A DNA stretch of 63,317 nucleotides, the filler included, from Chrysochromulina tobinii (Eukaryota), in NCBI GenBank assembly GCA_001275005.1. It is 5 parts of 5 records of this genome, joined end to end, with 100 filler letters (N's around TTAATTAATTAA, not from the genome) between each part and the next. Parts side by side here need not be neighbours in the genome. Positions count along the whole stretch, not along the records: positions 20,364 to 39,054 come from JWZX01001360.1; positions 39,155 to 51,893 come from JWZX01001362.1; 3 more parts are not named here. One strand, 5' to 3'. The notes beneath the pieces are model-generated. The model worked only from the letters and a program-made list of their open reading frames with translations, made no database searches and had not been told where the DNA came from. Below, piece after piece: positions 5,920 through 59,929 of the stretch. Positions within the stretch are counted from its first letter, which is position 1. Every line of letters starts with the position of its first letter. The translations under genes were made by a program, and so were the position numbers.

Positions 5920-6255
5920 GGCTCTTGCTTCCTCGATGACAGTTGCAATTGGCTGTGACGCGCTGTCGTTTCGTGAAACTAAAAGAGGGGGGTGACATAC
6001 GAAAAATGAATATGTTGGGTGCTCAGCTCGTCTTGATCAAGATACAAGACCAAGAGGTGACGCGACATGTAGTGTGGTTCTGCCCTCCGGATCGCGCGCG
6101 CGGTTGGCACCTGGTGTTTTGACTTGACTTGACTTGACCTGACTTGACTTTTTTTCCTTTGTCTTCGCGCCACAAGTCTCCACCGCGGCTGCGCCAACAC
6201 TCCACCAACCTTCTCGGCAGAGCGTGCCGTCAGCGGCACTTCGCCTCGCGCAAGA

Positions 6256-19412: not shown

Positions 19413-19451
19413 CCGAACCGGTCAACGTTCTCCTTTCATCAGGGCACACTC

Positions 19452-22462: not shown

Positions 22463-22503
<41 letters not shown>

Positions 22504-27051: not shown

Positions 27052-27376
27052 CCTCGATGCTCTCACACTGTGTCGACCTCTCGCCGAGGGGGCATGTGTG
27101 CGAAGGGAGCTGTGACCCATGGATACGAGTTACTACGGTACAGTACTGTAAGCATGGCTGTACGAGCAGAGGCGCCCGGACCGGCGCGTCGGGGCGCAAA
27201 CTACGGCATGAATGTCGGGTTACGCATGGATGTATGATGTCTCTATGATGACCTCGTTTCTATGAGTGCACTCGTTTCTATGACGATTGATATCATCGTC
27301 TCAAGCGAGCGACTGATCTCCTTAGGTGTGTGAATACACACCGAAAAGGTCGCGCTGCGTCTTGGCCTTCACCGCG

Positions 27377-29253: not shown

Positions 29254-32200
29254 ATGGAAGCACTGCTTGTAGCGCCGCTCAACCCGGACGAAGGCCAGGC
29301 CAATCCGAACTCGAGCCTCGTCGATTCTGCACGCGCCCTCTGGTTCGGACCCAAGCCCTCGGCCTCCTCAACTCAGATGCGGATGACGTCTGCCAGCGAC
29401 ATCTTCAGGGACGCCACGCTCATCGATGACCCGCGATGGGATGAGAAGGGATTCAATGAATTCAGCGGAATGCATGCGCGATTCGTGAGCCTCGCGTACG
29501 TGAAGGGCATCAAGGACGGGAGATTCACGCCGAGCAGGGGTCGGGCTGATGTGGACGGCGCCCAGTTTCATGATCTGCGCGACGATAAACTGCGTCACGC
29601 TGGCAAGACGCGAGACAAGGTCGGGCTCTTCGCTGTGCTCTCAGCTACGAGCTTCGACTACACAGGCGAGCTCAGCAACGTAGGCGAGGCGATCCGAAAG
29701 GTGGAGGCAGCGGAAATCGTCAAAATCGTCGAGAGCAAAAAAGGAGGCGGCAAAGACGACGACCTCATCATGTGGGACTTTTTGTGCGTCGACAAGGCCG
29801 ACGACGGCGCCAAGCTCGGCATGTATCGCATGTTCACCCACTACCGCGTGCAGACGGTCATCCTCACGAAGCCGCCCGGAGTGCGCCGCTCGGTCTTCGA
29901 GCGGCTCGAGACGATGGCGATGCTTGCGCTCGTCGCCTTTTGCCAGCGCATCGTCAACCACGAGGACGTCAAGGAAGGTCTCGAGCTGGACAAATTGATG
30001 GATCTTCCCAATTTGCTCGCGCCGCTCCAGTCCGACCACAAGACATTTCTCCGGGTCGCCTCTACGCTCGAGGCCGTCATCAAGCATCTCAAGCCAGTTG
30101 CCGAGGATGAGAAGGGCTTCAAAGTCCTTTGCTCCGAGGGCGACATCGCGTGGGTCAAAGCGACCTACCTCAAGGAGCTCCAGCGTGCCATGCCGACCGA
30201 CGGTGGACGCCCATTCCCAAGGCGGCAGGACCTCGATCAGAGCAAGCTGTTCACGGGCGAGCCACCAAAGCGCAAGGCGATCGTCGTCTCGCACGGCTGG
30301 GACACGGCGTTCCACATCAGCCCCTCCGGTGAAAAGCTCGATCTCCTCGTCGATGCGCTCGAGCGAGTCGATGCCATGACGGACGACGATGGCGTCTTCA
30401 TAGACTTTTGCTCGCTACCTCAGGCGGCGCACGCCTCGATGCCCAGCATCTACTTTCAGCACAATGGCATCAAGACGTATGCTGACAAGAGCGCGCTCGA
30501 GAAGAAGCAGTTTAACTTCGCGATGTGGGACATGTCGCGCATGTACGCCTACTCGTATGTGATCGTGCTTCCCAAACCGACCGATATCACCAAGTTCCCG
30601 GGTGACACGAGCGCGCCGCTGCTGGCCAAGGATATGAAGCTGGTACTGGACGGCGAGGACGTCCTCGTAGAGGGCACTGACCCTCGGATTGTCATTCAAT
30701 ATTGTGTCAAGAATGGGAAGGCGAAGACCGACGGCTCGCAGTCCTTTATCCTCGATCGTGACCTGGCCTTTGCCGACAACGTCGAGTTCCCCGTGGGCAG
30801 CTTGAAGGTTGTACTCTCCAACGTGTGCGGATGGGGGCGCGTCAGCCCCCTGCCGTATCAGAATCGTGGCTGGTGCTGCTCGGAGTTTACGATGGCCCTG
30901 TACAATCGGCGCATCCTCAACACGAAGGACGTCGCCCAATTGACCTACATGGACAGCGGCCGCCCGTGGCCCAAGACCGTCGCGGAGTACGATCAGATGA
31001 TGCGATCCGGCGTGGAGTTCACCAAACGCGGTGACGCGGACCTCGTCAAGTTCCTCTTCTTCCGCATGTGCTTTGGGCTGCGTCACTCCTTTTTCCCGTT
31101 CGAGGTGCAGGACACGACGGGCTACGGGCTGCCGAGCGAGGCGGATCTCATGGCTGCGTCACGCGAGGGGCAAGTCGGCACCGGTGTCAATGACCAGTCC
31201 AAGTACTACCTCTACCTGGCCTTACAGCCGCCCGCTGTCCAGCTGGACGGGCGGATCTGGAAGCGGAGCCTCGCACAGAAGCTCCATCGCATGCAGCTGC
31301 TCATGATTGCAAAGGCGCCGCACTGGACGGGGCACGGGCACCACCCCGTAGCCTTCGGGATTGGCGATCGCGAGATGACCGAGAGCGATCTGCGCCGTGG
31401 TGGCATCCACTGCCTGGTGTGGTGCTCGACCGGGTGCGGATGGGAGACGCCAAAGCCTTCCAGCGATCCAAAGTCCCTGAGCATCCCTGGGCTCTGTGAA
31501 GTGCTCACGAGCCTGGAGCCGACCAAGCGGCCCGCCGTCATCTTTGTTGTGATGCCGTACGGTGCGAGGCGTGCTGCAGGCCAGCTAGCTCACGCCCTTG
31601 CAGGCGGCAGCACGCTGGTCGTGTGGATCGCGGAGAACATGCTCGACGAGCAGCGGGCCAACGGCGTCCTCTTTGGCGTGCTCGCTCCGGCTTTGCAGTC
31701 GCTTCATGAGCCTTGGATCAACGGTCTCTCCCGCAGCGAGTTCACATCCGAGGTGCTGCACAAATCGGGGCAGATGGTCTTTGGCTCGCAGTGGGATGCG
31801 GCCGACTGCCTTGACGTGTCGACGACAGTTCCGCAGCTGCGCTGGGCGCCGTCGAGCCTGCCGCAGGACCGCCCGTGGGTGCATAATCTCACCTCGTCGT
31901 TTGAAGGAATGGCACTGCCGAGGGACGGTGCGGTGCAAACTAGGCGGATGATGGGCACAGACGACGACAAGGGCGAGCAGCGTTACCTCGAGGTGCAACT
32001 CATAGTGCGCGAGAATGGCAAGGAGATCGATGTGCCGCAACTGTTTGCGAGGGAGGATGGCCAAACGCCTGAGATTGTCTTTGCTTGGCTGGCAAAGGCA
32101 CTACCCAACGGGGATGCGAAGAACGTGACTGCCCTGTATTCTCACGAGGTCAAGAGGGCTTCCGGTGGTTGGATGAGCACGCTGCAGGTGCGGCTGATGA

Positions 32201-35200
32201 TCGGCGAGGTGGGCTATCTGCACCAGCTGCGCGACTTGGCGCTGACGGGTGCGCCAAGTATACTGGAGAAAGAGCTGAGCAGTGCATTGCTCGACGGCCG
32301 TCGCTACGAGGTCTCTGTGGACCGTGCGCAGTTTGCTCTGTCCTACGAGGAGAGTGTCTTATCACTCGATAAGCTCACCGTGCACCAGAAAGAGAAGCTC
32401 CGAGAGTGCTACGGCACGGCCGAGTCCAACCCGCTCCATCGTCTGCTTCGCCGCTCGCAAGAGCTCTTCGACGGCACGGCCACACCAAGCTACATCCACG
32501 TCGAGGCTCCTGCAGGGGCGGGCAAGACCTTTGTGGCGCTCAACTACCTGCTTAGCCGGCTGCAGAGCCATCCGACTATGACGGCGCTGTACGTTGCGCG
32601 GAACCGTGCCCTCTGCCTCTTTTTCGTCCGCTGGATCATCAAACGCGAGCCCAACCCGCTCAATCGTCTGGGACTGCTGCGCCGCTTGCAAGTGCTCTTC
32701 GAGGGCGACGAGCGTGAACCTCCGTTTGCACTTGGCCCGCAGCGAGTCATGCTCAAAAATGGCGTCATCCAGGTTGAGTCATCTCACTCGGACACGCACA
32801 ATTTCAGCCTGACGATCGTCGACGAGGCGCATCATATTTACACAAACCCTCTGTGCCGCGAGTGCGTCGGGGCCTATGTGCTGCCGCCGACAGAGGCGAG
32901 ACACCTCATGCTGCTCTCAGACATCTCGCAGTCGAGTGGCAAGGACAAGGAGCTCTATCCCAAGGGAAAGCCGAAGGTTGTCACGCTCACGGAGGTCGTG
33001 CGCTCCTCGCAGCGCATCGTTGAGGCGGCCTCTGTATTCCAGCTGGGCGACTCCGTGCACAAGATCTCATGCCAGCACTCGGCAGCCGGCCCCCCGCTCA
33101 AGGCCTTCATGTTCAACCTCGAAGGCGCGGTACCAGATGCGGTGCCATTGATGAAGGACCTCAATGACGGCCAGGTCCGCCAATACGCTGGCCAGACCGT
33201 TGAGGCCATCAAGCACATCATCTCGATGTTCGGCTCCCTGCGGCTGCACGACCGCGTTGCGATCGTCGTCGACGTTGACATACTGAATGACTTCCGAGGC
33301 ACCTTTTCCGCGGGGGCATACCAGGGTGGCTTGCTCGGTGCAGAGCTGCTTGAGCACTTTATGAGGCGAGAGTCGGCGACGAAGCAGCAGATTGAGGCTG
33401 GGCACGCCCGATCCTTTCAGATCATCGACGCGACGCAGGCGGCATCGATGGTGATGGGCGGCAGCCAGGACGATCGCGAGTGGCTGATCGTGGACACGAT
33501 CGAGGCGTTCGATGGGCTGGAGAGGCTCGTCGTGATCGCCGTAGGCCTCGATGCCAAGATTGTCCAAGGTGACAAGACGCTCAAGACACGATCGTTACTC
33601 TACCGAGCGATGACTCGCGCGCACATGCTCGCCATCGTCGTTCAGCACAACATCCCCGGCGGCTTCTTTGCCTTCCTCCATCAAGTCAAGCTCGATCCTT
33701 CTGCTGAATTTGATGCCGCGAAGGCGCAAAAGGCGCGCGACAGCACGGCGCTCAACAAGGTGATGACAAAGGGAAAGGCGTCCTCAGCCACAGAGCAAGC
33801 CGAGATGACCGTCCCATCATTGTCGACCGCAGTTCGAAGCCTCTTTAGCCGATTGGTGGGGAAAGTCGAGGTGAACTTTCCAGCATTGTCAACCACAGTT
33901 CGAAGCCTCTTCAGCCGATTGGTGGGGAAAGCCTCTTCAGCCGTTGCTGGTAGTGACGCGGCCGCAGACAGGGCTGCGCTCGAGGCCGGCGAAAAGAAGG
34001 TGGCGACCTTGTATCTCACCACGCTCGGCCACCTCATCTGCGCCTCGCTGTTGCTCGCCAAGTGGGAATCGCTAGAGGACCTCAATGGCGGCCCGCTCAA
34101 CGGCACGCGCTTCGATAGCCTGCCGACCCACGACGCTCCGGGCCTCTCCTGGTTCAGCGTCTTTGTGCCCTCGTGGATCGCTGAGCTCATCGTGGTTGGG
34201 ATGGCGATCTGGTCCGTCATGTTACTGCCGTCGACGGCGCGCAACCTGCGCATCCAGCACATCAACACGATCGCGCAGACGATTCTGTGCGCGCTCTTCC
34301 AGCTGCTCTTAGCTATCCGGCTCACCACCCAGCGTGGCTCGTGGCTGGTCGTCTTCTCGCCATGGTACGCATCGATGCTCGTACAGGTCTTCTTACACTG
34401 CCGCAAGATTCCTGATGCCGCCGGATTATTCCGCGGCTTGCGGCCAGGCTTACCGATCGGTTTCCGGCAAGTGCTCGCCCTCATGTTCTCGATTCCCATG
34501 GAGAATTATTTCCACTCAGACTATTTGGACTACTCGGGGCCCCAGCTGAACTACTCATACTCATACCCAGAGAACTTGACAGCTTTACTTTTGGAGTCCT
34601 CGACTACAGCTGTTGATTTCTCCCAGACTTTGACAGATGAACCTATGGTGATCAACACGGTCTTTCCTTATGTTGTGACTGCGCTACTGACTGCGCTTGT
34701 GACTGCGATACTGACTCTGCTATGGCTCAAAAAACAACTACTCAGGTCAAGACTCGCTTTTCAAAAATTCCTTTGGGTATACTCAACCGTCGTGTCCTTT
34801 ACTTCCTCATTCGGTTTGTTTTTCCGCCTCCCAGAGGGTTTACAAGGCATAGTATCCGCGCGCGGCGTCCTTGAGCCGTACATCATCGTAGAGTCCATCC
34901 CGCTGCTGCTTGGGTGCGTGTGGCTCGCAATCATCTCGTTCTCGTCGGTGCAGCGCGAGCGCAGCGGCCTGGGCACGCGTGGAGCATCACTGAGCTCTAT
35001 CCGAGTGGAGCGCGTAGTGGCCGAGGGAGGCAAAACCTCTTCAAACAACGCTGGTAGCGGCGCAGCCTCTTCAGCCAACGCTTGTAGCTGTGCGGCCTCT
35101 TCAGCCAGTGCTGGCAGCGGCGCGGCCTCTTCAGCCAGTGCTGGCAGCGGCGCGGCCTCTTCAGACGACGCTGGTAGCGGCGCAGCCTCTTCAGCCAACG

Positions 35201-38037
35201 CTTGTAGCTGCGCGGCCTCTTCAGCCAGTGCTGGCAACGGCGCGGCCTCTTCAGCCAGTGCTGGCAGCGGCGCGGCCTCTTCAGACAACGCTGGTAGCGG
35301 CGCAGCCTCTTCAGCCAGTGCTGGTAGCGGCGCAGCGCATGGAGAGAAGAATCTCACCAAGCAGACGATTTGGGATACAAGCAGCATCGAAGAGTCTGAG
35401 GAGGTGGAGGCGGGTTCAGTCGAGTTGAATCCCTTTGCTGCCGCAAAGACGACGGAAGGGATCGACGCGCCGATTGAGGCCGCCCTCCGCGACGGCGCAG
35501 TGCGCCTCATCGACGTTGCCTGGCTGTTGGATTCCGATCGCTCGGATAAGCAGCTGCCGCGCGTCACCAAGGTGGTGGCACGCCTCGCTTCTAACGAGCC
35601 GACGGACGTGCTGATTCGGCAGTTGGCGAAGCTCTGCGGGACCTCGTCCATCTGCATCACGGTGGAGGCGGCCTCGGCAGCCTCGCCGCCCCCCTCGCCG
35701 CCTCCCTCTCCTCCGGAGGTGGCTGCCCCGGCGGAGGTGCAGCTCGAGCGCTTCAGGCACGAGCTGGCCGAAGCGGGCCTCTCGCAGCTCGCGCACGCGA
35801 TCATTGACGATCTTGGCATCGAATCTGTGGAAGGGCTCTGCGACTTCACATTCAACGAGCTCAAGGAGCGCCTGAAGGCCGAGGCCGGCGTGACACTCGA
35901 CCTGGGGCATTCACAGAAGCTGAAGGCGTTCCTCGCCGCATCGCCTAGTGGCACGTCGGAAGAGCGCATGGCCGGTGGGCCGAAGGTGGCGTTCTCCGCC
36001 CACGGGCTGCAGCCAGATGCGAAGCGGAGGTGCAGCACGAAGCACGCCGATGCCAAGCTCACGCGCAGCCTCACATCGTCGGCGATGCTCAGAGCTCAGG
36101 TCAAGAACGCCGAGGCCGGCGAGGGCGACGTTGAGTCTCCGCACCTTGATACCTCGTCCGCAGCCAGCAGCCTCGGCTCTGGCCGTTTCCATTCGCGTCG
36201 CAGGAGAGATTCCTTTGCGGAAGACCTGACGATGGAGGCGGCCTCGAAGTCGGAGCATCCATCCGGCAAAATGACGGCGCGCGCCGTAGTGTCGGCAAAG
36301 CTGCGGCGACAAAACGAGACGAGACTGCCGAAGCCTGGGGCATTGGGTTCCGGCCGGATGGACCATAATCATGGTATTGGCCTCGAGGACCTCGACTCTC
36401 GCCCAGCACCCTTCGAACGAGGTGCATCTGCGACGCGCAAGACTCCAAATGGACAGCTCGATGCCCATGAGAAATCATTTGTGGTCACCTTCCACCTCAG
36501 CACGTTTGCCGAGGTCGCCCCGCTCACCGCAGCCGGCCTGTGCCGCAAAGCCGAGGCGGTGAAGGAGAGGCTGGCTGAGCTTGGGGCCGAGGACATCAAC
36601 ATAGTCATGGGAAAGCCCTTTCTGCCACGCTGCCAGGACATGCCGCCGGAAGCCTTCCTGTCCCCCGAGCGCGCCGCGGACCTCTATGCGCGGGGGCGCC
36701 GCGGCGTTTACGTGTCCAGCTGTTGCTGGCGCACTTCTGACTTGCCCGACCCCGATGGCCGCACGCTCGAAAAGTTGCGCGGCTACATGAAAGGCAGACA
36801 CGGCGAGTACGGTCTCTTTGTGGACTTTGCTTGCACGCCGCAGATCTTTGCGTGGCCGTCGTGGCACGCCCCGGAGGCGATCTCGCGGCGCTTTGGCGCC
36901 GAGGTGAGCCAGGGCCCGCTCACCGTGCTCAAGTTTGAGTGCGAGCGCGTCGCCACGGAGGTCGAGGCGCAGGTTTGCGTCGACAAGCTCGTCTCCCTGT
37001 GCTCGCAACAGGGCTGGGCGCTGGCCTCCATGGCGGACTTTGAGAGCCTCGGCCTACACTCGCGCGACTACGGCAGTGCGCTCTTCCACGGGCGTTACGT
37101 CAGAGGCGCGTACCGCTTCGACGAGGATGAGGAAGCATTGCCTGCAGAAGGCTACGTGCGCTTCCGCACGGAGGGCGACGCGCGCGCGGCATGGCGCCAT
37201 CCCGAGCTCAAGCGCTTGTGCGGCGGCAAGGAGCCAGAGCTGATGGGCGAGCACGTCTTCGAGAATGAGCTCAAGTTTGAACGCGGCCTCTCTGTCATGC
37301 CCTGCCTCTTCGCGTCCGCCACAGGCACCTGTGTGCTGCAGTTCACGGACCAGCCTGGCGAGCTCGGTAGTGACGACGGCGCGCCGAGCGAGCTCGTCTC
37401 CGAGCGCACGGGGACCGTCTTCGTCGTGCGCACCAACACGTCGCTCGAGGAGCTGCGGAAGGAGCTGGGCGACGGCGTGCTAGCCTGGGAGAAGAAGGGG
37501 TGGGGTGAGTTTGTGGTGCGTGTCGCTGGCGAGACGGCGGCACGCGCCGTGCGCTCGTTGAACGAGCGCGGCTACCCGCTCCGTCGCAAGGATCGCGTGG
37601 TGTACCCAATGTACAACTTGCGGCCGTACCGCTCTCGCGGCTGGCCAGTCTTTGATACGGCCGTCGCCTCGATTGTGGTCGCGTACGTCACGCAGCACAA
37701 ACGGCAAGGCAAGCCGCTTCCGGATCTCGTCGCGCGGGCGGAGGCGAGCAGTCCAAAGTTCATCAACATCGACGTGATCGGCGCACCGCGTGTGGTGGAG
37801 GTCACGCAGTCGCCGGAGCGCCTCCTCCGCGCGTGCATAGAGAAACTGAGCTCCAATAGGATCGTTTTCACCGGGAATGTCCAGCTTCGGCAGGTGTCCA
37901 GCTTCGTCCAGCTGCTTTCCGACTTAGAAGCCTCGATCGCGGTCGAGGTGACCGGGAGCGCGCCAGCACCTCTGAGGAGCCCGCGATCCCAGAACATGGT
38001 GTTGGCGGAGAACATGATGAACTTCATTTCGAGCTGA
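29254..38037 (+). CDS. Giant multidomain protein: HET-like domains, SF1 (UvrD/Schlafen-like) helicase, TMEM185-like membrane region, SAM-like domain and C-terminal HET-like domain
   Basis: Single ORF, likely ATG at 29254 (~2930 aa). HET-like VVSHGW..FIDFCSLPQ..PYQNRGWC (30286-30880) and YVSSCCW..PDPDG..FVDFACTPQ..PYRSRGW (36710-37650). Walker A EAPAGAGKT (32503), IVDEAHH (32815), LTEVVRSSQRI, DTIEAFDGLERLVVI, LYRAMTRA (33600). SWFSVFVPSW and SWLVVFSPWY transmembrane motifs. Confidence 0.8.
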   Translation: MEALLVAPLNPDEGQANPNSSLVDSARALWFGPKPSASSTQMRMTSASDIFRDATLIDDPRWDEKGFNEFSGMHARFVSLAYVKGIKDGRFTPSRGRADVDGAQFHDLRDDKLRHAGKTRDKVGLFAVLSATSFDYTGELSNVGEAIRKVEAAEIVKIVESKKGGGKDDDLIMWDFLCVDKADDGAKLGMYRMFTHYRVQTVILTKPPGVRRSVFERLETMAMLALVAFCQRIVNHEDVKEGLELDKLMDLPNLLAPLQSDHKTFLRVASTLEAVIKHLKPVAEDEKGFKVLCSEGDIAWVKATYLKELQRAMPTDGGRPFPRRQDLDQSKLFTGEPPKRKAIVVSHGWDTAFHISPSGEKLDLLVDALERVDAMTDDDGVFIDFCSLPQAAHASMPSIYFQHNGIKTYADKSALEKKQFNFAMWDMSRMYAYSYVIVLPKPTDITKFPGDTSAPLLAKDMKLVLDGEDVLVEGTDPRIVIQYCVKNGKAKTDGSQSFILDRDLAFADNVEFPVGSLKVVLSNVCGWGRVSPLPYQNRGWCCSEFTMALYNRRILNTKDVAQLTYMDSGRPWPKTVAEYDQMMRSGVEFTKRGDADLVKFLFFRMCFGLRHSFFPFEVQDTTGYGLPSEADLMAASREGQVGTGVNDQSKYYLYLALQPPAVQLDGRIWKRSLAQKLHRMQLLMIAKAPHWTGHGHHPVAFGIGDREMTESDLRRGGIHCLVWCSTGCGWETPKPSSDPKSLSIPGLCEVLTSLEPTKRPAVIFVVMPYGARRAAGQLAHALAGGSTLVVWIAENMLDEQRANGVLFGVLAPALQSLHEPWINGLSRSEFTSEVLHKSGQMVFGSQWDAADCLDVSTTVPQLRWAPSSLPQDRPWVHNLTSSFEGMALPRDGAVQTRRMMGTDDDKGEQRYLEVQLIVRENGKEIDVPQLFAREDGQTPEIVFAWLAKALPNGDAKNVTALYSHEVKRASGGWMSTLQVRLMIGEVGYLHQLRDLALTGAPSILEKELSSALLDGRRYEVSVDRAQFALSYEESVLSLDKLTVHQKEKLRECYGTAESNPLHRLLRRSQELFDGTATPSYIHVEAPAGAGKTFVALNYLLSRLQSHPTMTALYVARNRALCLFFVRWIIKREPNPLNRLGLLRRLQVLFEGDEREPPFALGPQRVMLKNGVIQVESSHSDTHNFSLTIVDEAHHIYTNPLCRECVGAYVLPPTEARHLMLLSDISQSSGKDKELYPKGKPKVVTLTEVVRSSQRIVEAASVFQLGDSVHKISCQHSAAGPPLKAFMFNLEGAVPDAVPLMKDLNDGQVRQYAGQTVEAIKHIISMFGSLRLHDRVAIVVDVDILNDFRGTFSAGAYQGGLLGAELLEHFMRRESATKQQIEAGHARSFQIIDATQAASMVMGGSQDDREWLIVDTIEAFDGLERLVVIAVGLDAKIVQGDKTLKTRSLLYRAMTRAHMLAIVVQHNIPGGFFAFLHQVKLDPSAEFDAAKAQKARDSTALNKVMTKGKASSATEQAEMTVPSLSTAVRSLFSRLVGKVEVNFPALSTTVRSLFSRLVGKASSAVAGSDAAADRAALEAGEKKVATLYLTTLGHLICASLLLAKWESLEDLNGGPLNGTRFDSLPTHDAPGLSWFSVFVPSWIAELIVVGMAIWSVMLLPSTARNLRIQHINTIAQTILCALFQLLLAIRLTTQRGSWLVVFSPWYASMLVQVFLHCRKIPDAAGLFRGLRPGLPIGFRQVLALMFSIPMENYFHSDYLDYSGPQLNYSYSYPENLTALLLESSTTAVDFSQTLTDEPMVINTVFPYVVTALLTALVTAILTLLWLKKQLLRSRLAFQKFLWVYSTVVSFTSSFGLFFRLPEGLQGIVSARGVLEPYIIVESIPLLLGCVWLAIISFSSVQRERSGLGTRGASLSSIRVERVVAEGGKTSSNNAGSGAASSANACSCAASSASAGSGAASSASAGSGAASSDDAGSGAASSANACSCAASSASAGNGAASSASAGSGAASSDNAGSGAASSASAGSGAAHGEKNLTKQTIWDTSSIEESEEVEAGSVELNPFAAAKTTEGIDAPIEAALRDGAVRLIDVAWLLDSDRSDKQLPRVTKVVARLASNEPTDVLIRQLAKLCGTSSICITVEAASAASPPPSPPPSPPEVAAPAEVQLERFRHELAEAGLSQLAHAIIDDLGIESVEGLCDFTFNELKERLKAEAGVTLDLGHSQKLKAFLAASPSGTSEERMAGGPKVAFSAHGLQPDAKRRCSTKHADAKLTRSLTSSAMLRAQVKNAEAGEGDVESPHLDTSSAASSLGSGRFHSRRRRDSFAEDLTMEAASKSEHPSGKMTARAVVSAKLRRQNETRLPKPGALGSGRMDHNHGIGLEDLDSRPAPFERGASATRKTPNGQLDAHEKSFVVTFHLSTFAEVAPLTAAGLCRKAEAVKERLAELGAEDINIVMGKPFLPRCQDMPPEAFLSPERAADLYARGRRGVYVSSCCWRTSDLPDPDGRTLEKLRGYMKGRHGEYGLFVDFACTPQIFAWPSWHAPEAISRRFGAEVSQGPLTVLKFECERVATEVEAQVCVDKLVSLCSQQGWALASMADFESLGLHSRDYGSALFHGRYVRGAYRFDEDEEALPAEGYVRFRTEGDARAAWRHPELKRLCGGKEPELMGEHVFENELKFERGLSVMPCLFASATGTCVLQFTDQPGELGSDDGAPSELVSERTGTVFVVRTNTSLEELRKELGDGVLAWEKKGWGEFVVRVAGETAARAVRSLNERGYPLRRKDRVVYPMYNLRPYRSRGWPVFDTAVASIVVAYVTQHKRQGKPLPDLVARAEASSPKFINIDVIGAPRVVEVTQSPERLLRACIEKLSSNRIVFTGNVQLRQVSSFVQLLSDLEASIAVEVTGSAPAPLRSPRSQNMVLAENMMNFISS
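35035..35336 (+). repeat. Coding 30-bp tandem repeat (ASSASAGSGA), about 10 units
   Basis: GCCTCTTCAGCCAGTGCTGGCAGCGGCGCG units in tandem. Confidence 0.9.
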
Positions 38038-38674
38038 GGGCCACTTAGGTGAGGCCCGACGGAGCCACGTGGACCGCGGGGCACGCGTGGGACGAGGTGC
38101 GGGTCCTATCGCCGCCGTCCGGACTCAAGCTTGAGGGCGGCTCGCTGGCCGGAGATCGTGCCAAGTTCCTTTTCGTCAACGGCAAGCTTGTCAACGGTCG
38201 GCCGGCATGGCAGCACACCGTGGTTGCGTCGCTCTGGATTGTATTCGACGGCGCTTGCTGGATGGGGCAGGCGGCTTCTTTGCATTCCTCCATCAAGTCG
38301 CGCTCGACGAGTCTGCTGAATTTGATGCCGCGATGGCGAAAAGGGGGCGCAACAGCACGGCGCTCAACAAGATGATGACAAAGGCATCCTCCGCAGAGCC
38401 ACAGAGCCACAGAGCCACATACACGAAAGGGCATACATGTACATGTTCATGCAGAATTCACATAGCCGGCACTGCGAGCCACGACAGCGTGACGAGTATT
38501 TACTCTTGGTTATGGGCCAGAGCTAAAACTTGAACTTGAATTTTCGCACTCATGTAAGGTGTGTGTATTCTGAGCGGGCAGTAACAGTGCCGTAGACCGG
38601 CTGTCGCGTCTGTCGTGTTCACGTTCACACATGTGGACGAAGATTCCCCGAACTAAAGTCGTGAATCTCGGAAA

Positions 38675-39054
38675 ATGCTGTATGCCTTCTTGGCAAGCGC
38701 GGCGCTTGCCTTCGTCAGCCCGAGTGGCCTGCTCGCACCGAGGCCGCGCCTCGCACGGCCGCCCACCATCACCGCACTCGCTGACGCGGATCTTGACGCG
38801 CAGCTCGACGCGCTCACGCAGAAGCTCGAGATCCTGCAGCTCAAGGCGCAGCTCGCCGAGCTGCAGCGTTCCGCTGCCGCAGCGACGTCCGCAGAGGCAA
38901 CAACCATTGTACAGGCGGCGGCTCCAGTGCCGCCAGCCGAGCCCATCGCTGCCGCTGTGCAGGCCGTTGTGACGGCGCCTGCTGCCATCGACTCGGCGGC
39001 TCAGGTCGCCACCGCCGAGCCCGTGGTGGCTCAGGTCGTCGCCGCACCGGAGGC
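38675..39054 (+). CDS. N-terminal part of a signal-peptide protein (possibly plastid-targeted), truncated by the contig end
   Basis: MLYAFLASAALA-FVSPSGLLAPRPR resembles a bipartite signal plus transit peptide starting with Phe; followed by a coiled coil. Confidence 0.55.
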
Positions 39055-39154
39055 NNNNNNNNNNNNNNNNNNNNNNNNNNNNNNNNNNNNNNNNNNNNTT
39101 AATTAATTAANNNNNNNNNNNNNNNNNNNNNNNNNNNNNNNNNNNNNNNNNNNN
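39055..39154. other. Artificial contig-join linker
   Basis: N44-TTAATTAATTAA-N44. Confidence 0.97.
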
Positions 39155-42100: not shown

Positions 42101-42698
42101 GTGCGCTGCTACCCAGACCCGCACACAAAGTACGACAAGATGTGGGTGGGCCCGGTGGCACCCACAGCGACGGTGCAGCAGCTGCGCGAGGCGATCGACG
42201 CGTGCTTTGCCGAGGCGGGTCTCAAGGCGGCGATGATCAACGGACCGACACAGCGGATCGAGTGCGAGAAGGACGAACACAACGCATCGGGCATCAAGGC
42301 GGGCTCGCGATCGCTGTGGAATCCTCTCCTCTCGTCCACCAAGGCCAACCTCGAGAAGCCGTGGGGTGCGCTGCTCTGATGACCTCTGATGACGTCTGAT
42401 GACCTCTGATGACGTCTGATGGCCTCACTCATCAGGTCCGCTGCTCAAGGAGCTGACCACGCGCGACGAGATCAGGTGGCAGACCGTCGACGACCCCGTC
42501 GATGTGAGTGGCAAGCGGCTGTGTACTGACCTGACCATCCAGCTACAGAACGACGACGGCGACGACGTGAAGACGCCCACCATCATCATCAAGCTCATGC
42601 CGTTTGAGTTCATCTCGTACAAGGCGCGAACAGTGCGCGAGGTGATGCCGTGGCTCAAAGACTATGCCCAGAAACGAAGCTTAACCGTGGTCAAGTAG
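39155..42698 (+). CDS. UBA1: Ubiquitin-activating enzyme E1 (5' end missing), multi-exon
   Basis: [90 protein letters not shown], catalytic [23 protein letters not shown] and [12 protein letters not shown]. Introns include ~39702-39795, 40094-40241, 41071-41149, 41708-41898, 42009-42100 and 42366-42435. Confidence 0.93.
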
Positions 42699-43275
42699 CG
42701 GCTCGGCGCTCGCGCGATCATAACTCATTGGGCTACAAAACATAGGTTGCAAAGGTCGTACTATCGTAGCATTAAACATGGCACCGACGGCTGTATATAC
42801 TAACCTCCGAGCGATATAGCTCCAAAGTGCAAACCGGGGCTCTGGCACCACCCGGACGCCACGACAGTCGACGCTGCGCTGCCTCTGCCGGGCGGGACAC
42901 CCGTAAGCCACCGGGCGGTCCGGTCGAGGGCCCCGCGTGAACGACCGCACACGATTCTTGTCGCGCGTAAAGTGCGCCGAATTCTAAAATTTCGACCTGC
43001 CCACGGCTACCGACACGAACGCCTCGCGCTTCCTACTACCACGTTCGTCGACTGAGTTACATAGAAGTTGGGGAACTCCTCGCCTCAATGCACAACCTGG
43101 TGACACGACGTAACGCCCACCTAACCCTCGAAGTTCATCATACCCGCCGCGCCGCTTGGGATACAGTCCCGTCCGACGCCCGGCCCGCCCTCAGCCCCCA
43201 AGACACGCACGATGCGCCTGCCTCAAGGCCGCGACGCGAGCTCCACGCTCGTGTCGCGTCTCGGGCCTCGAAGGA

Positions 43276-45681
43276 TTATGATTCCTCATCGGCGAAGACG
43301 TCCATGAACTTGACGGCTTTGGGGAAGGGCGGTGGCGCGACGGTGGAGGTGCGGCCAGCTGGTGTGCTGAGCTCAAGGTCCACCCCCAACCGTGTGCGCA
43401 CGTAGTGGACGACAGCCTGGCGCGCGCCGACGAGGCGATTGTAGTCATACAGCGCTCGAACGATCGGCTCGCCTTTCATGGCGAGGGAGACGGCCGCCTT
43501 GTCGTACGTGAGCATGTTGCCTTTAGCCTGTGAGCTATCGACCGTCGCGCATGGCAGCACGGTCGAGTCGTGAAATTCGCCGGTGGAGTTGTTCCGAAAC
43601 GTTGAACCTTCTTTGAGGGCTTGGCTAGTCGATCGATCCAACCATTCTAGCGCCGCGACGGGCGTAAAGTGCAGTAGGAAGGTGCCATCCCCACGCGGGG
43701 AGGCAATGAGGCTGAAGTCCACCGCGCGGCCGCCAAGCTTCTTGCAGATGTAGCGACGCAACCCAACGAGCGCCGAGCGGATCGGCGGTGCCGAAGGTCG
43801 CCACGTGACCAAAGTGAGCGCGATGGCGTCGCTCTGGTCACCGATCTGAACGAGATCGATGTAGGCATCGAGGGCGGCGACGTAGGTGGGGCGTGCGACG
43901 AGGCGCAGGACGGGCCACATCTCGATGCCGCCTCGCGAGATCTGCGTGTGCTGGGTGGCGGCGATGGATGAAGACGCTTTGGGGTTTTGGCTCACCTCAT
44001 GCGACGCCTCCCCCGGCAGACGATGCGCGAGGGCACCGGCCGCGTTGAGAACCTCGGCCTCGACCAGAATCTTCTCGAAGTCGTTTAAGAACCAGTTGCC
44101 CAATTTGGCCGACTCGTCCGCGACCTTGGCGACGCCGAGCTCAAAGGCGATGGTGCCACGTTGCTCCGAGAGACCCGACGAGGTCAATCCGAGCCCATGC
44201 GATTCGAAGTAGCAGAAGCCGTTCTTGCGAAACCGTCCGACCTCAGCAGCGCCAGCGCTGCGGCTGGTGGTCTGCGTGCCGTCGTCGTCGATCCCGACGA
44301 GATCGCAACGGCGCGTCCAGCAATTGACGAGGAAGCGATGGTTCGTGAACTGCTCGATCGTCGAGCGCTTGACGATCGTGTACTTGGGCGAGAGCATCAC
44401 CGACAGCATCATCCTCTCGTGCTTTTTTCGATCGCCCTTGTACAGCCTGCCCGGGCTGGCGCGAATGAAGGACACGAACTCGTGCAGCTCGTCGAATTCG
44501 CCGTCGCGGGCGCGGTTGGCGGCGTGGAGGTCGGCCATCGTCTCGCGAAGGAACTCCTCGACCTGTACACGGCGCTCGAGCGTCAACTGCCCAAACGAGG
44601 AGATAATCTTGCCAGCGTCGCGTAGCCGCTGCCAGGCCGACGAGTGCTCGTTGACACCGGCACGCTCGAGCTCGTGCTGACGGACGAGCTGCAGCGCGGA
44701 CTTGAGTTCCTCCTCTGTGGCGGCGAGGGGGGCGGGCAGCTTCTTGAGCGACTCGGGGCACATCTTCTTGAGCGCCGCCAGCATCTTGCGCTGTCGGCGA
44801 GCCATCTGTCCGACAAGGAGAGCCTTGATGCGCTGGCCCGCGAGCAACACGGCCGACTCCTCCCGTGTGAGGATATTGGGGAGGATGGTGTTGTCAATGG
44901 CTGACTCGCCAGCGGTCTGCGCGAGGGTCTGCGCCTGTCCTTTCTTGAGCTCGCGCGCCTTTTTGCCGAAGCTGGCGCGCACGTTCCCGTCGAGAGCACG
45001 CACCCAGCCGTCGTCCGACCACTGCGCCGGCACGTCGTAAAACCGGTACGGCGAGACGCCATCATACTCTGAACACTCGATGAGTAGCTGGTAGACGGCG
45101 GAGATGTTGGGGGCGCCATACCATTTCGCCGTCAGCTCGCGGCAGCGTGTGGCCCACGCCTCCCACTGCACCTGTGGCGGCATGACCTCCTCGACAGACA
45201 CGCCGACCATGTGCCTCGTGCGCGTGGCCGAGAGCGCCTCCTGGAGCTCCTTGTAAAACGGAACCCACTCGTGGGCGAGGAAGGCTTGTTTTGCATCCGC
45301 CGTGCCAGAGCGGCAGAGCGCCGTCTCCAGCTCCTTGGGGACCACCATCACGCGTGCTGCTCCGCCGGCCTTACTGGCGTATGGATCCGCGACGAGAGGG
45401 GTCCACTTGCGCAGGCCGTGGTGCAGCGGCACAAATGGCGCCCTTGACGGCGCCAGCGTTGGCGCCAGGCGGAGCGAAGGAAGCGAAGCATGGCCTTTCG
45501 ACGGCATGCGATTGAGTCGGCTCTCAAACGTCTCGAGCTCCTTCATTGTACGCTCGTGCTCAGGCGATCGGGTCAGCTGGATGGCTGGCAGGCGCAAATT
45601 GGAGGGTGACCGAGTTCCCAGCAGCGGCAGCTTGACCGGCGATCGGATGCCCGGCATGGCATTACCCAGCGCGTCCGACAT
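43276..45681 (-). CDS. Hypothetical protein (801 aa)
   Basis: Long intronless ORF with coding-like codon usage. IQ-like segment (RIKALLVGQMARRQ). No family confidently recognised. Confidence 0.65.
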   Translation of the reverse strand: MSDALGNAMPGIRSPVKLPLLGTRSPSNLRLPAIQLTRSPEHERTMKELETFESRLNRMPSKGHASLPSLRLAPTLAPSRAPFVPLHHGLRKWTPLVADPYASKAGGAARVMVVPKELETALCRSGTADAKQAFLAHEWVPFYKELQEALSATRTRHMVGVSVEEVMPPQVQWEAWATRCRELTAKWYGAPNISAVYQLLIECSEYDGVSPYRFYDVPAQWSDDGWVRALDGNVRASFGKKARELKKGQAQTLAQTAGESAIDNTILPNILTREESAVLLAGQRIKALLVGQMARRQRKMLAALKKMCPESLKKLPAPLAATEEELKSALQLVRQHELERAGVNEHSSAWQRLRDAGKIISSFGQLTLERRVQVEEFLRETMADLHAANRARDGEFDELHEFVSFIRASPGRLYKGDRKKHERMMLSVMLSPKYTIVKRSTIEQFTNHRFLVNCWTRRCDLVGIDDDGTQTTSRSAGAAEVGRFRKNGFCYFESHGLGLTSSGLSEQRGTIAFELGVAKVADESAKLGNWFLNDFEKILVEAEVLNAAGALAHRLPGEASHEVSQNPKASSSIAATQHTQISRGGIEMWPVLRLVARPTYVAALDAYIDLVQIGDQSDAIALTLVTWRPSAPPIRSALVGLRRYICKKLGGRAVDFSLIASPRGDGTFLLHFTPVAALEWLDRSTSQALKEGSTFRNNSTGEFHDSTVLPCATVDSSQAKGNMLTYDKAAVSLAMKGEPIVRALYDYNRLVGARQAVVHYVRTRLGVDLELSTPAGRTSTVAPPPFPKAVKFMDVFADEES

Positions 45682-46157
45682 CGTAACCGCGAGTACAGCG
45701 ATCTTGAGACAATTGCACGTAGAGCGCGTTCGTCATTCTGCATGGGTTAAGTTTCGGCGCAAACTTACTGCACTGCACGATCACGTTCGTTCACGTTCAC
45801 ACAGTTGAAGAGAGGGCTTCTGCGCGCTCTGGCGAGCTAGCGCGATCAGCGTCAGTCGTTTTCGCAGATTGCGCACCCGCCGGCCGCACTGGCCGAGGAT
45901 TTCCCCTACCAGCGCATGTCTTGATGGGTGACTTGGTTGATCGTTGACTTTGTTGCGTTTCATCAAAGCTCTGCCATTCACACAAACAATTCATTTCCAC
46001 TGGCGCACTCCCTCCCGAGTTCATATGTGGGGCCTGCCCTTCTTCTCTTTCTTTGGCTGTATCGCAGCTCTCTGCCTACATGTGTCTCAGTCCGGAGTCC
46101 TGCTTTGTATTGTATTGTCTTCACAGCTGTCCTCCTTCCGTGTGTGCGTGTATTAAC

Positions 46158-49100
46158 ATGAATGAAGAGTTTTTCTTGCCTAAACGAACAATGCGGAAGG
46201 CAGGAAGCCAGTCAATCGCGACGAGCCGACGCCTTGTCTTGGTCTTCGTGCTGGCCTTGCTAGCTTTCGTTCTCTACTGGCTCCGCCGCCGCCGCCGCCA
46301 GCCGCTGCTGCTCACACTCAAAGCAGAGCCGCCTGCGGGCAAGCGTGAGCAACTGGAGCAGCGGTTGGCGGAGCGACTCCGGGAACAGTCCTCATCTGCC
46401 GATGACCACTCGACGATACCCAAGTCTGCGGCGGAGAACACGCCAGCCGCGGAAGCCGCCTCAATGATCACCAACAAGTTCCTCCCCGACCTGCCCACGT
46501 TTGTCTTCGGCGATCGCACTCTCTACGAGGACGGCATCCTCGCGCGCGTAGGCAATCTGTCACGAAGCGTGCAGCAAGAGTTTGAGGAGAATGAGCGCGG
46601 CAAATGGCTGCCCGAGCTACGCTGCGTGACAGAGCAGCCAGCTAGAGAGGCATACCCATCGACAAAAGGAGTGGCGCCAAGCGACGCCCTCGTGCCAAGC
46701 TACACTCGCGACCTCGGCCGTACCGGCTGGACGCTCTCCAATTTCCACGAGGCGCAGCCTACGGAGGGCAACGGCCCCGGCCAGATCCCCGAGCGTCTCT
46801 CCCTCGCCGAGACGGCCGTACTACGCACCTACACGGGCCCGTGGTTTCAGGCGATCAACTTCTACCTGCGCTACCTGCCAGAGGTACGCTGCTGTGACGC
46901 ATCGCCGTACTATGAGCACTACGACCCTCGCCGTTGCTTCCTCGCCAAGCCCGGCCATGAGGACGTCTGCCACTTTTGCGGCAAGCCCAAGAGCAAGCAC
47001 TTCATTCAGACGCTCGATTCATGGGCCACAAGTGCAGCGCTACTCGTGGGTGGCATCCTCAAGCTTCGCTTCGCCTCGACCCCTATGACAGTCTATCGCG
47101 GCGTCAAGGAGCGGTTCATCCGTCTGCCAAAGTCGTTTGTCGCGCCGCACAGAGGCGCGTTCGGATGCGGCGTCGAGCCTGCGCCCATGAGCACCACCGA
47201 AGCCAAGGAGGTGGCTCAGAGCTATGCCGGGGACGACTGTGGATCTCTCTTTCAGATCGAGTTTGATGCGGGGAATCTTGGAGCGCGGCTCGGTTTCCTT
47301 TCGCAGTACCCAAAGGAAGAGGAGCTCGTCTTCCCGCCGGGCACCATGCTCACCTGCATGGCGGTGGAGCCGCTCGAGGGCCAAAAGCACCTCCTTCGCA
47401 TCAACTGCTCGATCAACCCCGACAGGCAAGTCAAGGACGCCATCGCAGCAATGATCACGCACCATGACACGCCCGGTCCGCAGGGCGGGCTGCCGAGAGT
47501 GTACATGCTCGTAGTGCTTCAGCCAACGCCTGTGCTCTTCGGCCATGTCCGTTCCCATCTCAGCCTGTTGCAGCAGCTTGCAAGTACCGAGCGCGCCCTT
47601 GCCGACCAGTGCGCTCAGTGGCCAGCCAAAGGGAAGGCGCCAATCTGCGTGCGAGACGCCGATCCTTCCGCCGTGCGCCTCTCGCTCGTGCGCAACCAGA
47701 CACACTGCCTCGTATGGCTCGGCCGGGGCTACGAAGTGGCACGTTCCACGTGTTCAGGCTCGCTGACGATCATGACTTTGGCGGCGGAGATCAGTAAGCT
47801 TCCGAAGGTCTGTCGGCCTCGGGTTGCTCTCGTGGCTTTGCAGCACGGGGCGGAGCGCGCTGCAAAGCTTCTGAGTGACCACGGCATCGGCTGTGTCTTC
47901 TGGGTGCGCACCACAAGTGAACCACCTCGTGCGCACGAGTTACTATCCATAGTTGTCGACCGAATCCTCGAACATATTTGCGGTGGCTGTCTTGGCGAGC
48001 AGCTCATGAGATGCTTCGGCGAGGCGCGTACGAAGCTGTCGAGCCACATCTCAGATGGTGGCTGCGTTGGCTCGCCTACCAGCGTTGATTCGCCGACAAG
48101 TACAGCGAGCACTTCATCATCGTGGATTCAGAGTGAGATGCCAGCGTTGCGTCCTTCCAACCTCGTCGACGAATCGACGCACGAGTTGTGCGAATCACTG
48201 TCGTCGCTGCAGCTGCTCGCGTGCGACGTGCCAAAGGTCGAGGAGCTCCGAAAGATGCTTATCGTGCGCAGAGAACGAGGCGTCGCTGTGTGGGGCAGGA
48301 GCGGAGCCGCCACAGACGAGAACTTGGCGCATCGCTGCCGGAGCGTCGCTCTCGAGGCAACCATGTCACTACTGATCGGGACCACTTTTGAGCTGGTCTG
48401 GCGCATCTCGGACGAGCAGAGCCTCAACGAAGGCATGCGTCGGATTAAGGCCGCTGGTCCGCTCGCCGCAGTGCTCGTTTGGATCGATCTAGTCGAGTCG
48501 CTGCCGCTCGTGCAGCTGTCGACCCTACTCAAACCCATTATGAAACGAGCGCGTGAGGCTGCCTGCGCGGTTGTGCTCACGTGCATAGGAACACACGCAC
48601 AGCAGATGCAGGCTCTTGACGAGGAGCTGGGCTTAGGAGTGAGCAGCTCAATTTATGAAGATTGATATGCATCCGAGTTCCACCACTGAGGAGCATGGTG
48701 TGCTGTGCTGCACAGGAGATGCTGCATATTGGGCAAGCGGCTGAGATGGAGTCCGATGCATCCACGCACCATAACGAGTTGCGCTTCACCCTACATGCGC
48801 CCGGAGGCCAAGCCGTGGATCCCATGAGCGTCGTTGAGCCAATAGCGCTACAGGAAGCTATCGAAGCCGCGCTCGGTGGGCAGCATCCTCTCGCAGCAGT
48901 GTACTTAAATGATGAGCAGGCAGTAATCGCGCGCATCCCGGTGACCGATGTAGCCTTTCTTCATGGACTGCGCGACAAGGTGCTTGAGGGTAGATTTGCC
49001 GTCGAGCTCACCGACAGGCTCCGCAGGCTGCCGAGCTCAGTCAGCCTGGACGTCAAGGTCGACCTCAGCGCATTTGCAGAGCGTTACGAGAGCAGCGTGC

Positions 49101-51893
49101 TGCATCTCGATAAGCTTACGAAGCACCAGCAGCTGAAGCTGCTCGAGTGCAAAGGCCACCATAGCGTTCGTGTCGAGGCACCAGCTGGCGGCGGTAAGAC
49201 GTTCATTGCCCTGCACGAAATGCTGGGCGTACTCCAATTGGAATCAGCTGAGGAGAGCGAGAAGGCCGCGGTCCTCTTTGTCGCCCCGCACGAGGCCCTT
49301 GCCGTTTTCGTTGCATCCTGGATTGGAACACGCCTTAACAAGTATACGAGAGATGAGATGCTTCGCCGACTTTGGGTCCTTTTCCTGCCCTTTGATCAAG
49401 GCGTGAGGCGGGCCAGTCTGTCAGACGAAGGAAGGATCTTCTTTGAGCAGCCATCTGCTGACGAGATGCCCAAGGAATTCAGATTGGTCGTCGTTGATGA
49501 GGGGCATCACATTTATAACAACGCCTCCATGCGCGAAACGGTTGAGTCGCACATGGCACCATTGACACGACGCATCGTCCTAGCTGATGTGTCGCAGTCG
49601 CTCGGCCGAGACATTGCGTACCCATCCGCGCACCGCGTGGAGCTCACCGAAGTTGTGCGATGCTCGAAGCGCATCGTACAGGCCGCGTCCGTCGTTCAGC
49701 TCGGAGGCGAGCGGAAGCTGCACACGCAGTGCCATCACAAGTCAGACGGACCACCAGTCAAGTCGTTCTTGTTCGAGCTTGCGGCTCGTAGCAGCTCTGC
49801 AGAACGATTCCGCGCATACGCGGAGCGCGTGATGGCGGCGCTCGAGCACATCGCAAACCTGTTCCCAGGGTTCGAGCTCACCGACCGCGTCGCCATCCTC
49901 GTCCCAGACGCTCCCTTTCTCGATGGTCTCAAGCTCCAACTGATGGCCGCGTTCCAGGCGCGAGGCAGGCGGTCCGATCAGACGCCAGGGCAGCAGTACA
50001 TTCTGATCGAGGCGAAAGAAGCTGCGGCTACCCTGCGCCGGCGAGGGCGGAGTAGCGATGGTGAGGCACTTGTCATCGACACGATCGGCAACTTTGATGG
50101 GCTCGAACGGCTGATTGTGATCGCAGTCGGCCTCGACGCACCACTCGACCAGGAGTCGGACGATGCTTTCTTGGAGACGCGCTCGCGGCTCTACCGCGCC
50201 TTGACGCGGGCGCACATGCTAGCAATGGTTGTTAACGAGGCTGTCTGTGGCGGCTGGCTCGAGTGGCTCAACCTCATCAAGCTGAAAGAGGGCAAGTTTG
50301 ATCGCGAGGCGGAGCTCGCGCGCATGAAGGCGGATGCTGCGGAAGCAGAAGTGAAACGGCGTTTGGAAGCGATTCGTAGCCCGCTTGCAGTGGAAGTTGC
50401 CAATCACGTCAAGGAATTCCAAGAGGGCCTCGTCACCGAGCAGACTGTATGGGATACGGGTGCAAACAGCACCTCACAACCGGAAACGTTGAAGTTCAAC
50501 CCGCTTCAGCAAGAGCGTACCTCCCTTGTTGGCGGCGGAGGCAGTGGGGACGGGGTTGGCGATGGAGGTCTCACGCCTCCGCGGACCGAGCCGTTGAGCG
50601 CCTTTATCGGGGAGGGCGGTGGACCGGTCACCATTTCTTTGCTTCACACAGAGAGTGGTGTAGCAAGCGATGCCGTTCAAGGCAGCTCACAGGGCAGCTC
50701 AAGTACGGCTCCTGCCTTACCGCGGTCGCCATCTTCGCCACGCGAGGTGATCACGCTTTGCCTCGAAGGTGACGTTGACTCTTTTGACGACTCGCGCGAG
50801 GACCGATTGAAGAGCGTATTGGCAGGGCTGTTGGGTCCGGAGGTCTGCAGCGGACCTTGCAGGATCCGCATCGAAAAGCCCGCGTTATCCTCCAAGATGA
50901 AGGCGAAGATTGGAACAAGACGGTGCTGCATCCGTGTTGAAGTCGACGAATCTCAGCTTCCGCAGCACAGCACAGCTTCCTACAGCAGCGACGCTGCTGA
51001 GTCGAGCGACTGTCAAAGCGACGACACATCCGTCGAAGACGACGTTGAGAACAAAGTGAAGGAGCTGACAACCACAAGTGTTTGGCCTTCTGGTGTGGGC
51101 GTTGAGGACATCAATGTAGTCTTCAGGCGCTTTAGCTCAGTCCTGCTCGTTTTGCTCGTGCATCCCGTTGTGGCGCACGTCCTATTCCAGCTCGCAAAGC
51201 AGCGCGATGAGACGTTGCGGCAGGAGAGTGTGAGGTGCTGCAAGCTTGGAGGTTGCGTTGCACAAATCGACGATCGTGCGGACATTGAAGACTGCATTCG
51301 CAAGACCTGTGACGCGGAGAGAGAAGCGATCAGTAAGATGCCCGAGTACCAAGAGGAGAAACAACTCATAACCGCTAATAGCAATGGCGGCGGCGGCGGC
51401 GGCGGCGGTGGCGGCGGTGGCGGCGGTGGCGACGTCGCCGCGGCCGCCGACGAGAAGGCGGCGGCCGAGAAGGTGGCGGCCGAGAAGGCAGCAGCTGAGG
51501 AGGCGGCGGCAGCCGAGGAGGCGGCGGCTGAGGCCGAGATCGAGATCGATGCTGAGGAGCAGACTGGGCCTGCTGACGACTCACTGCAGCAGAAGGATGA
51601 CATGGAGCTGCTCCTCGCGGTCGCTGCACGGAAGCTTGGCATCACCACTGCAGGCGTGGACATCACCGTGATCCGTCAGCAGCTCCACCAGCAACTCGAG
51701 GCTGGCCTTGCAGAGGAGCAGCCACTTGTCAGCCCCACGGATGTCCACGACCTGCAGCAGCAGGTGGCGAGGCTGCAAACGCAGGTGCTGCGGCAGCAGG
51801 AGGAGATCGACGTTCTGCGCGGTAAGGGCGGCGCACGCGGCGCCCACGAGTTCGTCGTCGCGCAGTACAACATCCTCGCTGGCTACCTCGGCG
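46158..51893 (+). CDS. Membrane-anchored ADP-ribosyltransferase (R-S-E clade) fused to SF1 (UvrD/Schlafen-like) helicase, with the start of an EEP nuclease/phosphatase-like domain; 3'-truncated
   Basis: ATG at 46158, signal anchor LVLVFVLALLAFVLYW. ART motifs LRTYTGP.F..IN..LR, VYRG, MSTT and SQYPKEEELVFPP. Phase-0 GT-AG intron 48639-48715 joins the two track ORFs. Walker A EAPAGGGKT (49175), VVDEGHH, DTIGNFDGLERLIVI, LYRALTRA. Ends FVVAQYNILAGYL at the gap. Confidence 0.8.
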
Positions 51894-59753: not shown

Positions 59754-59929
59754 GAGACGAGTGGGGAAATCAGAGGGGAAGCGATTTTGATGTGTGTCGC
59801 GATGCACCCAATCGAGCATGCGATTGCGATCCTGGTAAGTTTGAAGTTCCGCTCAAGACGGCTCCCCAAGTTCGGCTTGCCTGCGGTCTCTTTCTCTTCT
59901 CTCTGCTGCTGTCGCGTCTTTTTGCACCG

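Follow-up and report, generated by a model that had tools for sequence, protein, structure and literature searches.

We analyzed a 63,317-nucleotide stretch of the Chrysochromulina tobinii genome (assembly GCA_001275005.1; hereafter the window), in which five contigs are joined by N linkers, and found that two genes on separate contigs, A and B, belong to a real and apparently undescribed family of multidomain proteins. The family combines a fixed Schlafen-like helicase core with freely exchanged ends, and its members are therefore likely immune sensors that work like NLRs. In our judgment, they are probably NLR-like, helicase-based, single-chain intracellular immune receptors whose N-terminal effector would be fired when an invader is sensed.

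The shared core of genes A and B

A reading of the window from its letters only (hereafter the sequence-only reading) had proposed that A and B share a colinear core. All 13 motif patterns occurred once each, in identical order, in proteins A and B, with A reading YLHQLRD at the motif first written FLH.LRD. The A–B pair scored 247 bits, while the best of 200 shuffled copies of B reached 31.6 bits (175 of the 200 gave any match). Identity was 38% over 544 columns in the helicase region (A residues 980–1500 versus B; E value 6e-76) and 29% in the upstream module (E value 2e-10). The cores are nevertheless not fully colinear, as a STAND-like domain of about 155 amino acids (aa) is present in B and missing from A. 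The two genes are laid out as follows.

29254..38037, + strand: gene A, a single open reading frame (ORF) of 2927 aa; one ORF also in L001–L003
29416..30108, + strand: A, first HET-like repeat, degenerate; relatives show the tandem repeat (alignment A4)
30112..31098, + strand: A, front-slot HET-like domain carrying the motifs SHGW, FIDF, MSRMY and RGWCCSEF
31183..31896, + strand: A, caspase/CHAT-fold domain, fold modelled on the B homologue; catalytic His/Cys apparently absent
31981..32358, + strand: A, small beta-alpha-beta-beta-alpha-beta (ferredoxin/RRM-like) domain, from the secondary structure of the model
32371..33723, + strand: A, SF1 helicase, SLFN11-like, Walker A and B intact
33991..34953, + strand: A, multi-pass membrane insert, in part TMEM185-like, between helicase and closing motif
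35036..35333, + strand: A, 30-bp tandem repeat encoding a Ser/Ala/Gly linker
35353..35442, + strand: A, closing motif QTIWDT...LNPF
35461..38034, + strand: A, variable tail; its HET-like domain is split and includes a weak SAM-like insert
38270..38407, + strand: partial duplicate of the A helicase end (73% at the aa level), outside the gene
46158..51893, + strand: gene B, 1886 aa once spliced, open at the contig end; L011 is 100% identical over 10,962 bp
46215..46295, + strand: B, N-terminal signal anchor; other N-termini in its place in L013 and L016
46548..47477, + strand: B, front-slot ADP-ribosyltransferase (ART) domain carrying R, S-T-T and E-x-E motifs
47481..48143, + strand: B, caspase/CHAT-fold domain
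48168..48635, + strand: B, STAND/AAA+-like alpha/beta domain without P-loop
48639..48715, + strand: B, 77-nt GT..AG intron, spliced in RNA runs X1, X2 and X9
48767..49099, + strand: B, ferredoxin-like domain
49112..50314, + strand: B, SLFN11-like SF1 helicase
50432..50518, + strand: B, closing motif QTVWDT...FNPL
51842..51893, + strand: B, start of an EEP nuclease/phosphatase domain, completed in L011

The helicase of A and B is of the SF1 type with an SLFN fold. SLFN11 was the best structural match, the UPF1 and Sen1 helicases were also among the fold matches of the core, and Walker A was present in all 71 helicase sequences compared. As a single-sequence query against the PDB the core found no match and, in line with the sequence-only reading, it was not identified with a known housekeeping helicase. 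No Schlafen nuclease (AlbA_2) was matched in A or B by Pfam at E ≤ 0.1, the front regions being assigned to other domains; the fold alignment begins at SLFN11 residue 392 (end points only), and the SWAVDL motif was not noticed in the A and B translations. In a helicase tree of 71 sequences (FastTree, midpoint root), A, B and C types fell on separate branches; since the tree is weakly supported at depth, we draw no order of events from it.

For the upstream module, modelling gave a caspase-haemoglobinase fold with SAVED-CHAT (PDB 8TL0) as its best match. Across 59 sequences, His was not among the five commonest residues before the conserved Gly, and there was no conserved Cys after the second strand. 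These positions were assigned from motifs, without superposition; judged by these residues, the caspase fold is likely inactive. The STAND-like fold was seen in the B model, and a P-loop GK[ST] occurred in only one of 36 distinct copies. No winged-helix match was seen in the core model. The topology of the ferredoxin-like domain fits the TRADD-N RRM-like fold; of the uS turn conserved in that superfamily (PMC8195603), GS was found in a few members and was not conserved among 76. A profile search of this domain against PDB sequences returned nothing convincing and no TRADD-N match; TRADD-N was also absent from the core fold lists, which were filled by helicase matches.

The core of gene A was 100% identical to C. 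tobinii gene models Ctob_010973 and Ctob_013059, located on different contigs. The helicase-end duplicate lies 230 bp past gene A and has no motif or tail after it. B is not a single ORF: it consists of two frames joined by the 77-nt intron and runs off its contig end at 51893. RNA contigs from three of the four runs compared carried the splice, and B-type genes are thus transcribed. Contigs matching the anchor and EEP pieces of B diverged at 46300, 46319, 51524 and 51560, and RNA depth was higher on the EEP piece. At the loose ends 46300, 46319 and 51560, other transcripts carry anchor or EEP pieces at least 95% identical to those of B beside other neighbours, consistent with recent capture from host genes; the genes behind the diverging contigs are possible donors of these parts. 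In the tail of B, a stretch at 50732–51214 ending S-S-V-L-L-V resembles by eye a second ferredoxin-like domain and is common to L016.

The labels first given to the flanks fared unequally. The ART of B passes the Pfam cut-off (PF03496, E value 3.4e-6; 1.5e-7 with the fragment as query) and, by this match and by motifs whose functional meaning we presume, fits the R-S-E ADP-ribosyltransferases, with a predicted activity. The membrane insert of A matched TMEM185 (PF10269, E value 2.9e-7, above the Pfam cut-off), has five hydrophobic segments and is lacking in L004, and the EEP domain is whole in L011, a longer assembly of gene B (PF03372, E value 5.7e-13). The SAM domain in the tail of A, by contrast, was a weak Pfam match (E value 0.09), and the HET-like label found no Pfam match. 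Specifically, Pfam HET (PF06985) had no match at E ≤ 10 in the three regions of A, 13 relatives and the C-type fronts, with HMMER filters that drop weak ones, a profile search against PDB sequences returned nothing, and for the domain of A the Atlas returned only haptophyte clusters without a name, at 0.86. Direct BLAST of the first repeat of A against the second gave no match. We take the label, for the domains of A (including its degenerate first repeat), Chromera and the C-type copies, from motif resemblance, unconfirmed by Pfam, PDB or Atlas. Separately, HET homologues are reported from Haptophyceae in PMC4986451.

Family size and module exchange

Word-based searches for relatives gave 63 and 21 matches, and a profile search gave 626, 1121 and 1645 clusters (50% identity) at E ≤ 1e-30, 1e-10 and 1e-3, respectively, of which the best 150 were examined. 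As the sequence-only reading had anticipated, the family is multi-copy, its Schlafen-like helicase core conserved and its flanks variable; it is neither low-copy nor of fixed architecture. Members include proteins of Chrysochromulina, Prymnesium, Baffinella, Hemiselmis, Chromera, Cymbomonas, Effrenium and Bicosta, and of the EukProt single-cell genomes SAG11 and COSAG, which we take to be Picozoa. When 120 clusters (70% identity) were screened, 36 of the 46 with enough room for a caspase fold had one, and 24 of 46 had the STAND-like domain; the ferredoxin-like domain was present in 80 of 92 and the closing motif in 40 of 71. Several differing copies carry the same assembly prefix as exact copies of A or B; this points to paralogues within a single organism but is not proof, the samples being mixed. 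Pattern scans, insensitive to distant relatives, confirmed 0 of 12 and 0 of 345 candidate stretches in viral contigs and 0 of 148 candidates in prokaryote genomes; tblastn against plasmids, likewise insensitive to distant relatives, found none, and Foldseek of the CHAT/STAND model against viral models gave nothing at E ≤ 0.001.

Three parts of these proteins are exchanged. The front slot holds TIR_2 in six of 20 long proteins and in four more, ART in B and a Bicosta protein, caspase in a Hemiselmis protein, kinases in several, and the HET-like domain in A, Chromera and C-type copies; TIR thus fills the same slot as the ART of B and the HET-like domain of A. In the middle, L007 and L008 are 99–100% identical over 6 kb (gene and upstream flank) except for a patch of about 900 bp with 63–86% identity over the STAND-like domain, which is 61% identical at the protein level while the helicase is 100% identical. 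At the back, B-type copies 90–94% identical in DNA carry EEP (L011, i.e., gene B), PUB, MIB-SH3 and ankyrin (L013), or PARP and EF-hand (L016). C-type copies end in MIB-HERC2/C1/TIR, in HET-like and LRR domains, in a second B-type helicase or in almost nothing, and 34 of 41 pairs of close copies had no similarity past the closing motif. Elsewhere in the family the tails include F-box/RCC1, kinase, PH, C2, FYVE, bromodomain, RRM and ubiquitin domains, as well as LRR, ankyrin, WD40 and TPR. The notion of swappable effectors consequently holds for the front (TIR, ART, HET-like) better than for the back, since many tails resemble sensors or captured host domains.

Individual copies showed further rearrangements. 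In L017, the STAND-like segment at 2247–2801 lies in inverted orientation, and the closing motif is followed by another helicase, of B type, fused on at 5390–6946; this two-helicase protein forms an 11-member cluster. An intron found in L006, L010 and L015 is precisely absent near 4315 of L007, which suggests an RNA intermediate or cDNA conversion. In L015, a gene with kinase, HET-like and LRR domains (2654–5080, minus strand) lies head-to-head with a C-type copy. The P0174 cluster of Effrenium voratum comprises six consecutive accessions on one 1.65-Mb contig, 92–98% identical (tandem copies or isoforms); in P0174 itself, DUF4116 repeats come after the closing motif. P0079 of Baffinella has a second, C-terminal block of caspase-fold, STAND-like and ferredoxin-like domains after its SAM domains (residues 2024–2555).

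We found no title or abstract start describing this family, in agreement with the sequence-only reading, in a literature search in which subscription journals were mostly not covered and supplements outside the scope; members might appear in the source-data tables of PMC8195603 or PMC12489294. A 2026 preprint on protist immunity (10.64898/2026.10.11.758280), in the passages covered, deals with viperin and a viral TIR-nuclease, and its single mention of a helicase concerns a viral one. PMC8195603 has no occurrence of haptophyte, Emiliania, Chrysochromulina, algae or Symbiodinium.

Probable NLR-like receptors and competing explanations

The immune-receptor reading follows from the layout of effector, switch and sensor and from the modelled folds of the core domains, all of which have immune counterparts. 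Like NLR/STAND receptors (fungal HET-NWD, plant TIR-NLRs, bacterial Avs), the family has the order effector, NTPase, variable sensor, with TIR, HET-like or caspase fronts, LRR, ankyrin, WD40 or TPR tails and domain reassortment; in architecture, it matches their effector-front, variable-sensor-behind layout. Unlike in those receptors, the intact NTPase is an SF1 helicase, and the STAND-like domain is optional, P-loop-less and itself the variable part. With long Schlafens (SLFN11, SLFN14, SLFN5) it shares the best-matching helicase fold, an effector ahead of the helicase and, in the model, a long helix before the helicase like the ID-helix of SLFN11 described in PMC11615386. It differs in its missing Schlafen nuclease, identity of about 14–16%, variable tails, and the caspase fold, optional STAND-like and ferredoxin-like domains before the helicase. 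The family is accordingly not Schlafens, because it has no nuclease, nor NLRs, because it has no active STAND.

In bacterial iSTAND/VMAP ternary systems and TRADD-N proteins (PMC7159879 and PMC8195603), an inactive STAND domain has been suggested to sense invaders, the partners are caspase-like and TIR domains, and close relatives differ widely in architecture. They are bacterial operons with MoxR-vWA or animal expansions, whereas the A/B parts are all united in a single eukaryotic protein, arranged around a Schlafen-type helicase. SAVED-CHAT, the best fold match of the upstream module, differs in that the family apparently lacks catalytic His/Cys and has no SAVED domain. Anti-phage HamB, AbiO, Nhi, NERD-helicase and DUF2075 proteins gave weak, partial matches at the Walker A/B region only (E values 1e-9 to 1e-2), with DUF2075-type PF09848 below cut-off for A and no prokaryotic relative found in the insensitive scans above.

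In the mechanism that we infer, latch, ligand, oligomerization, effector activity and invader would be connected as follows. At rest, the Q-x-x-W-D...P motif would fold onto the core as a latch and hold the tail against it. The trigger could be foreign nucleic acid bound by the helicase, as SLFN11, reported to be autoinhibited, senses single-stranded DNA (PMC11615386), and/or a protein of the invader that binds to the hypervariable STAND-like domain or to the tail, whose repeat domains or captured host domains (as decoys) would act as the sensor. The ATP-binding helicase would then change state, with the likely inactive caspase fold as an oligomerization scaffold, and the front domain (TIR, HET-like, ART, kinase or caspase) would be activated, leading to NAD+ depletion, target modification or signalling and to growth arrest or cell death. 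Recombination among copies would renew specificity. In PMC12489294, TIR, LRR and NACHT transcripts are up in resistant Gephyrocapsa cells, and TIR-based antiviral systems are stated to be undescribed in microalgae.

Microalgal antiviral mechanisms are largely unknown, and the family is a concrete candidate receptor class across many protist lineages; its parts (effector, switch, latch, sensor) are separable, and it has natural variants differing by one module. It would take Schlafen-type helicase sensing outside the animals and provide a non-STAND NTPase with NLR logic. Conceivably, although we would lean slightly against it at present, protists own a third modular class of intracellular immune receptors beside NLRs and ROCO, with a Schlafen-type helicase as switch, a dead caspase as scaffold, a dead, allelically swapped STAND as sensor and a conserved peptide latch as the plug-in point for new tails, including freshly captured host genes. 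If so, this would be a main antiviral or anti-parasite system of algae, and the Schlafen helicase a eukaryotic immune sensor independent of the Schlafen nuclease.

Three observations weigh against an immune role: many tails are ordinary signalling domains, one subgroup has a fixed F-box and RCC1 tail, and dN/dS (0.11–0.94) was below 1 in all 79 defined comparisons. The last, a check proposed by the sequence-only reading, indicates purifying selection without pairwise sign of positive selection.

It is unlikely that the core is a selfish, self-copying cassette that enters or captures host genes, with chimeras as by-products. Close copies do lie in unrelated flanks with similarity from about the start codon to the closing motif, and the reused anchor/EEP pieces, the intron missing from L007 and the helicase-end remnant behind gene A fit such a cassette. 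However, transposase, Rep and reverse transcriptase were absent from the family Pfam tables (some covering the best five families), the chimeras form long open frames that evolve under purifying selection, and the front slot repeatedly holds TIR, ART and caspase domains; capture may moreover be a source of immune repertoire variation rather than an alternative to it. Non-immune regulators, such as RNA-surveillance or stress-signalling helicases with many acquired targeting domains, are likewise improbable. The signalling-type tails (F-box/RCC1 to ubiquitin), the stable F-box/RCC1 subgroup and the UPF1 and Sen1 fold matches speak for them, but patchy distribution, many copies, tail turnover among 80–95% identical copies and the allelic patch swap are atypical of housekeeping genes.

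Same-species self/non-self recognition (fusion or mating incompatibility), as in fungal HET-NLRs, is very unlikely. HET-like motifs and one allelically exchanged domain would suit it, as would the membrane anchors or probable lipidation signals that A, B and the C-type copies carry; yet the HET identity is unconfirmed, a nucleic-acid-type helicase better suits an intracellular invader, and we know of no vegetative fusion in these flagellates. That the fusions are misassemblies is scarcely credible: all assemblies are apparently short-read, tails hold repeats and no RNA contig spans a whole gene, but the fusions recur in independent assemblies, A as one ORF in L001–L003, B in L011, the PUB/ankyrin form in L013, L014 and L032, and the two-helicase form in its 11-member cluster from many assemblies.

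Other features of the window

Upstream of gene A, tandem short repeats are dense across 21500–27300. A Cdc6/ORC1-like gene with a PHD finger occupies 6143–14507 (plus strand); about ten Tudor-knot repeats interrupt its AAA+ domain, and a second frame (12594–14507) contains the lid and winged helix. Ordinary genes encode an FkbM methyltransferase (4687–6036), an alpha-galactosidase (17559–19421) and a YidC/Oxa1 protein with TPR (58263–59852, minus strand).

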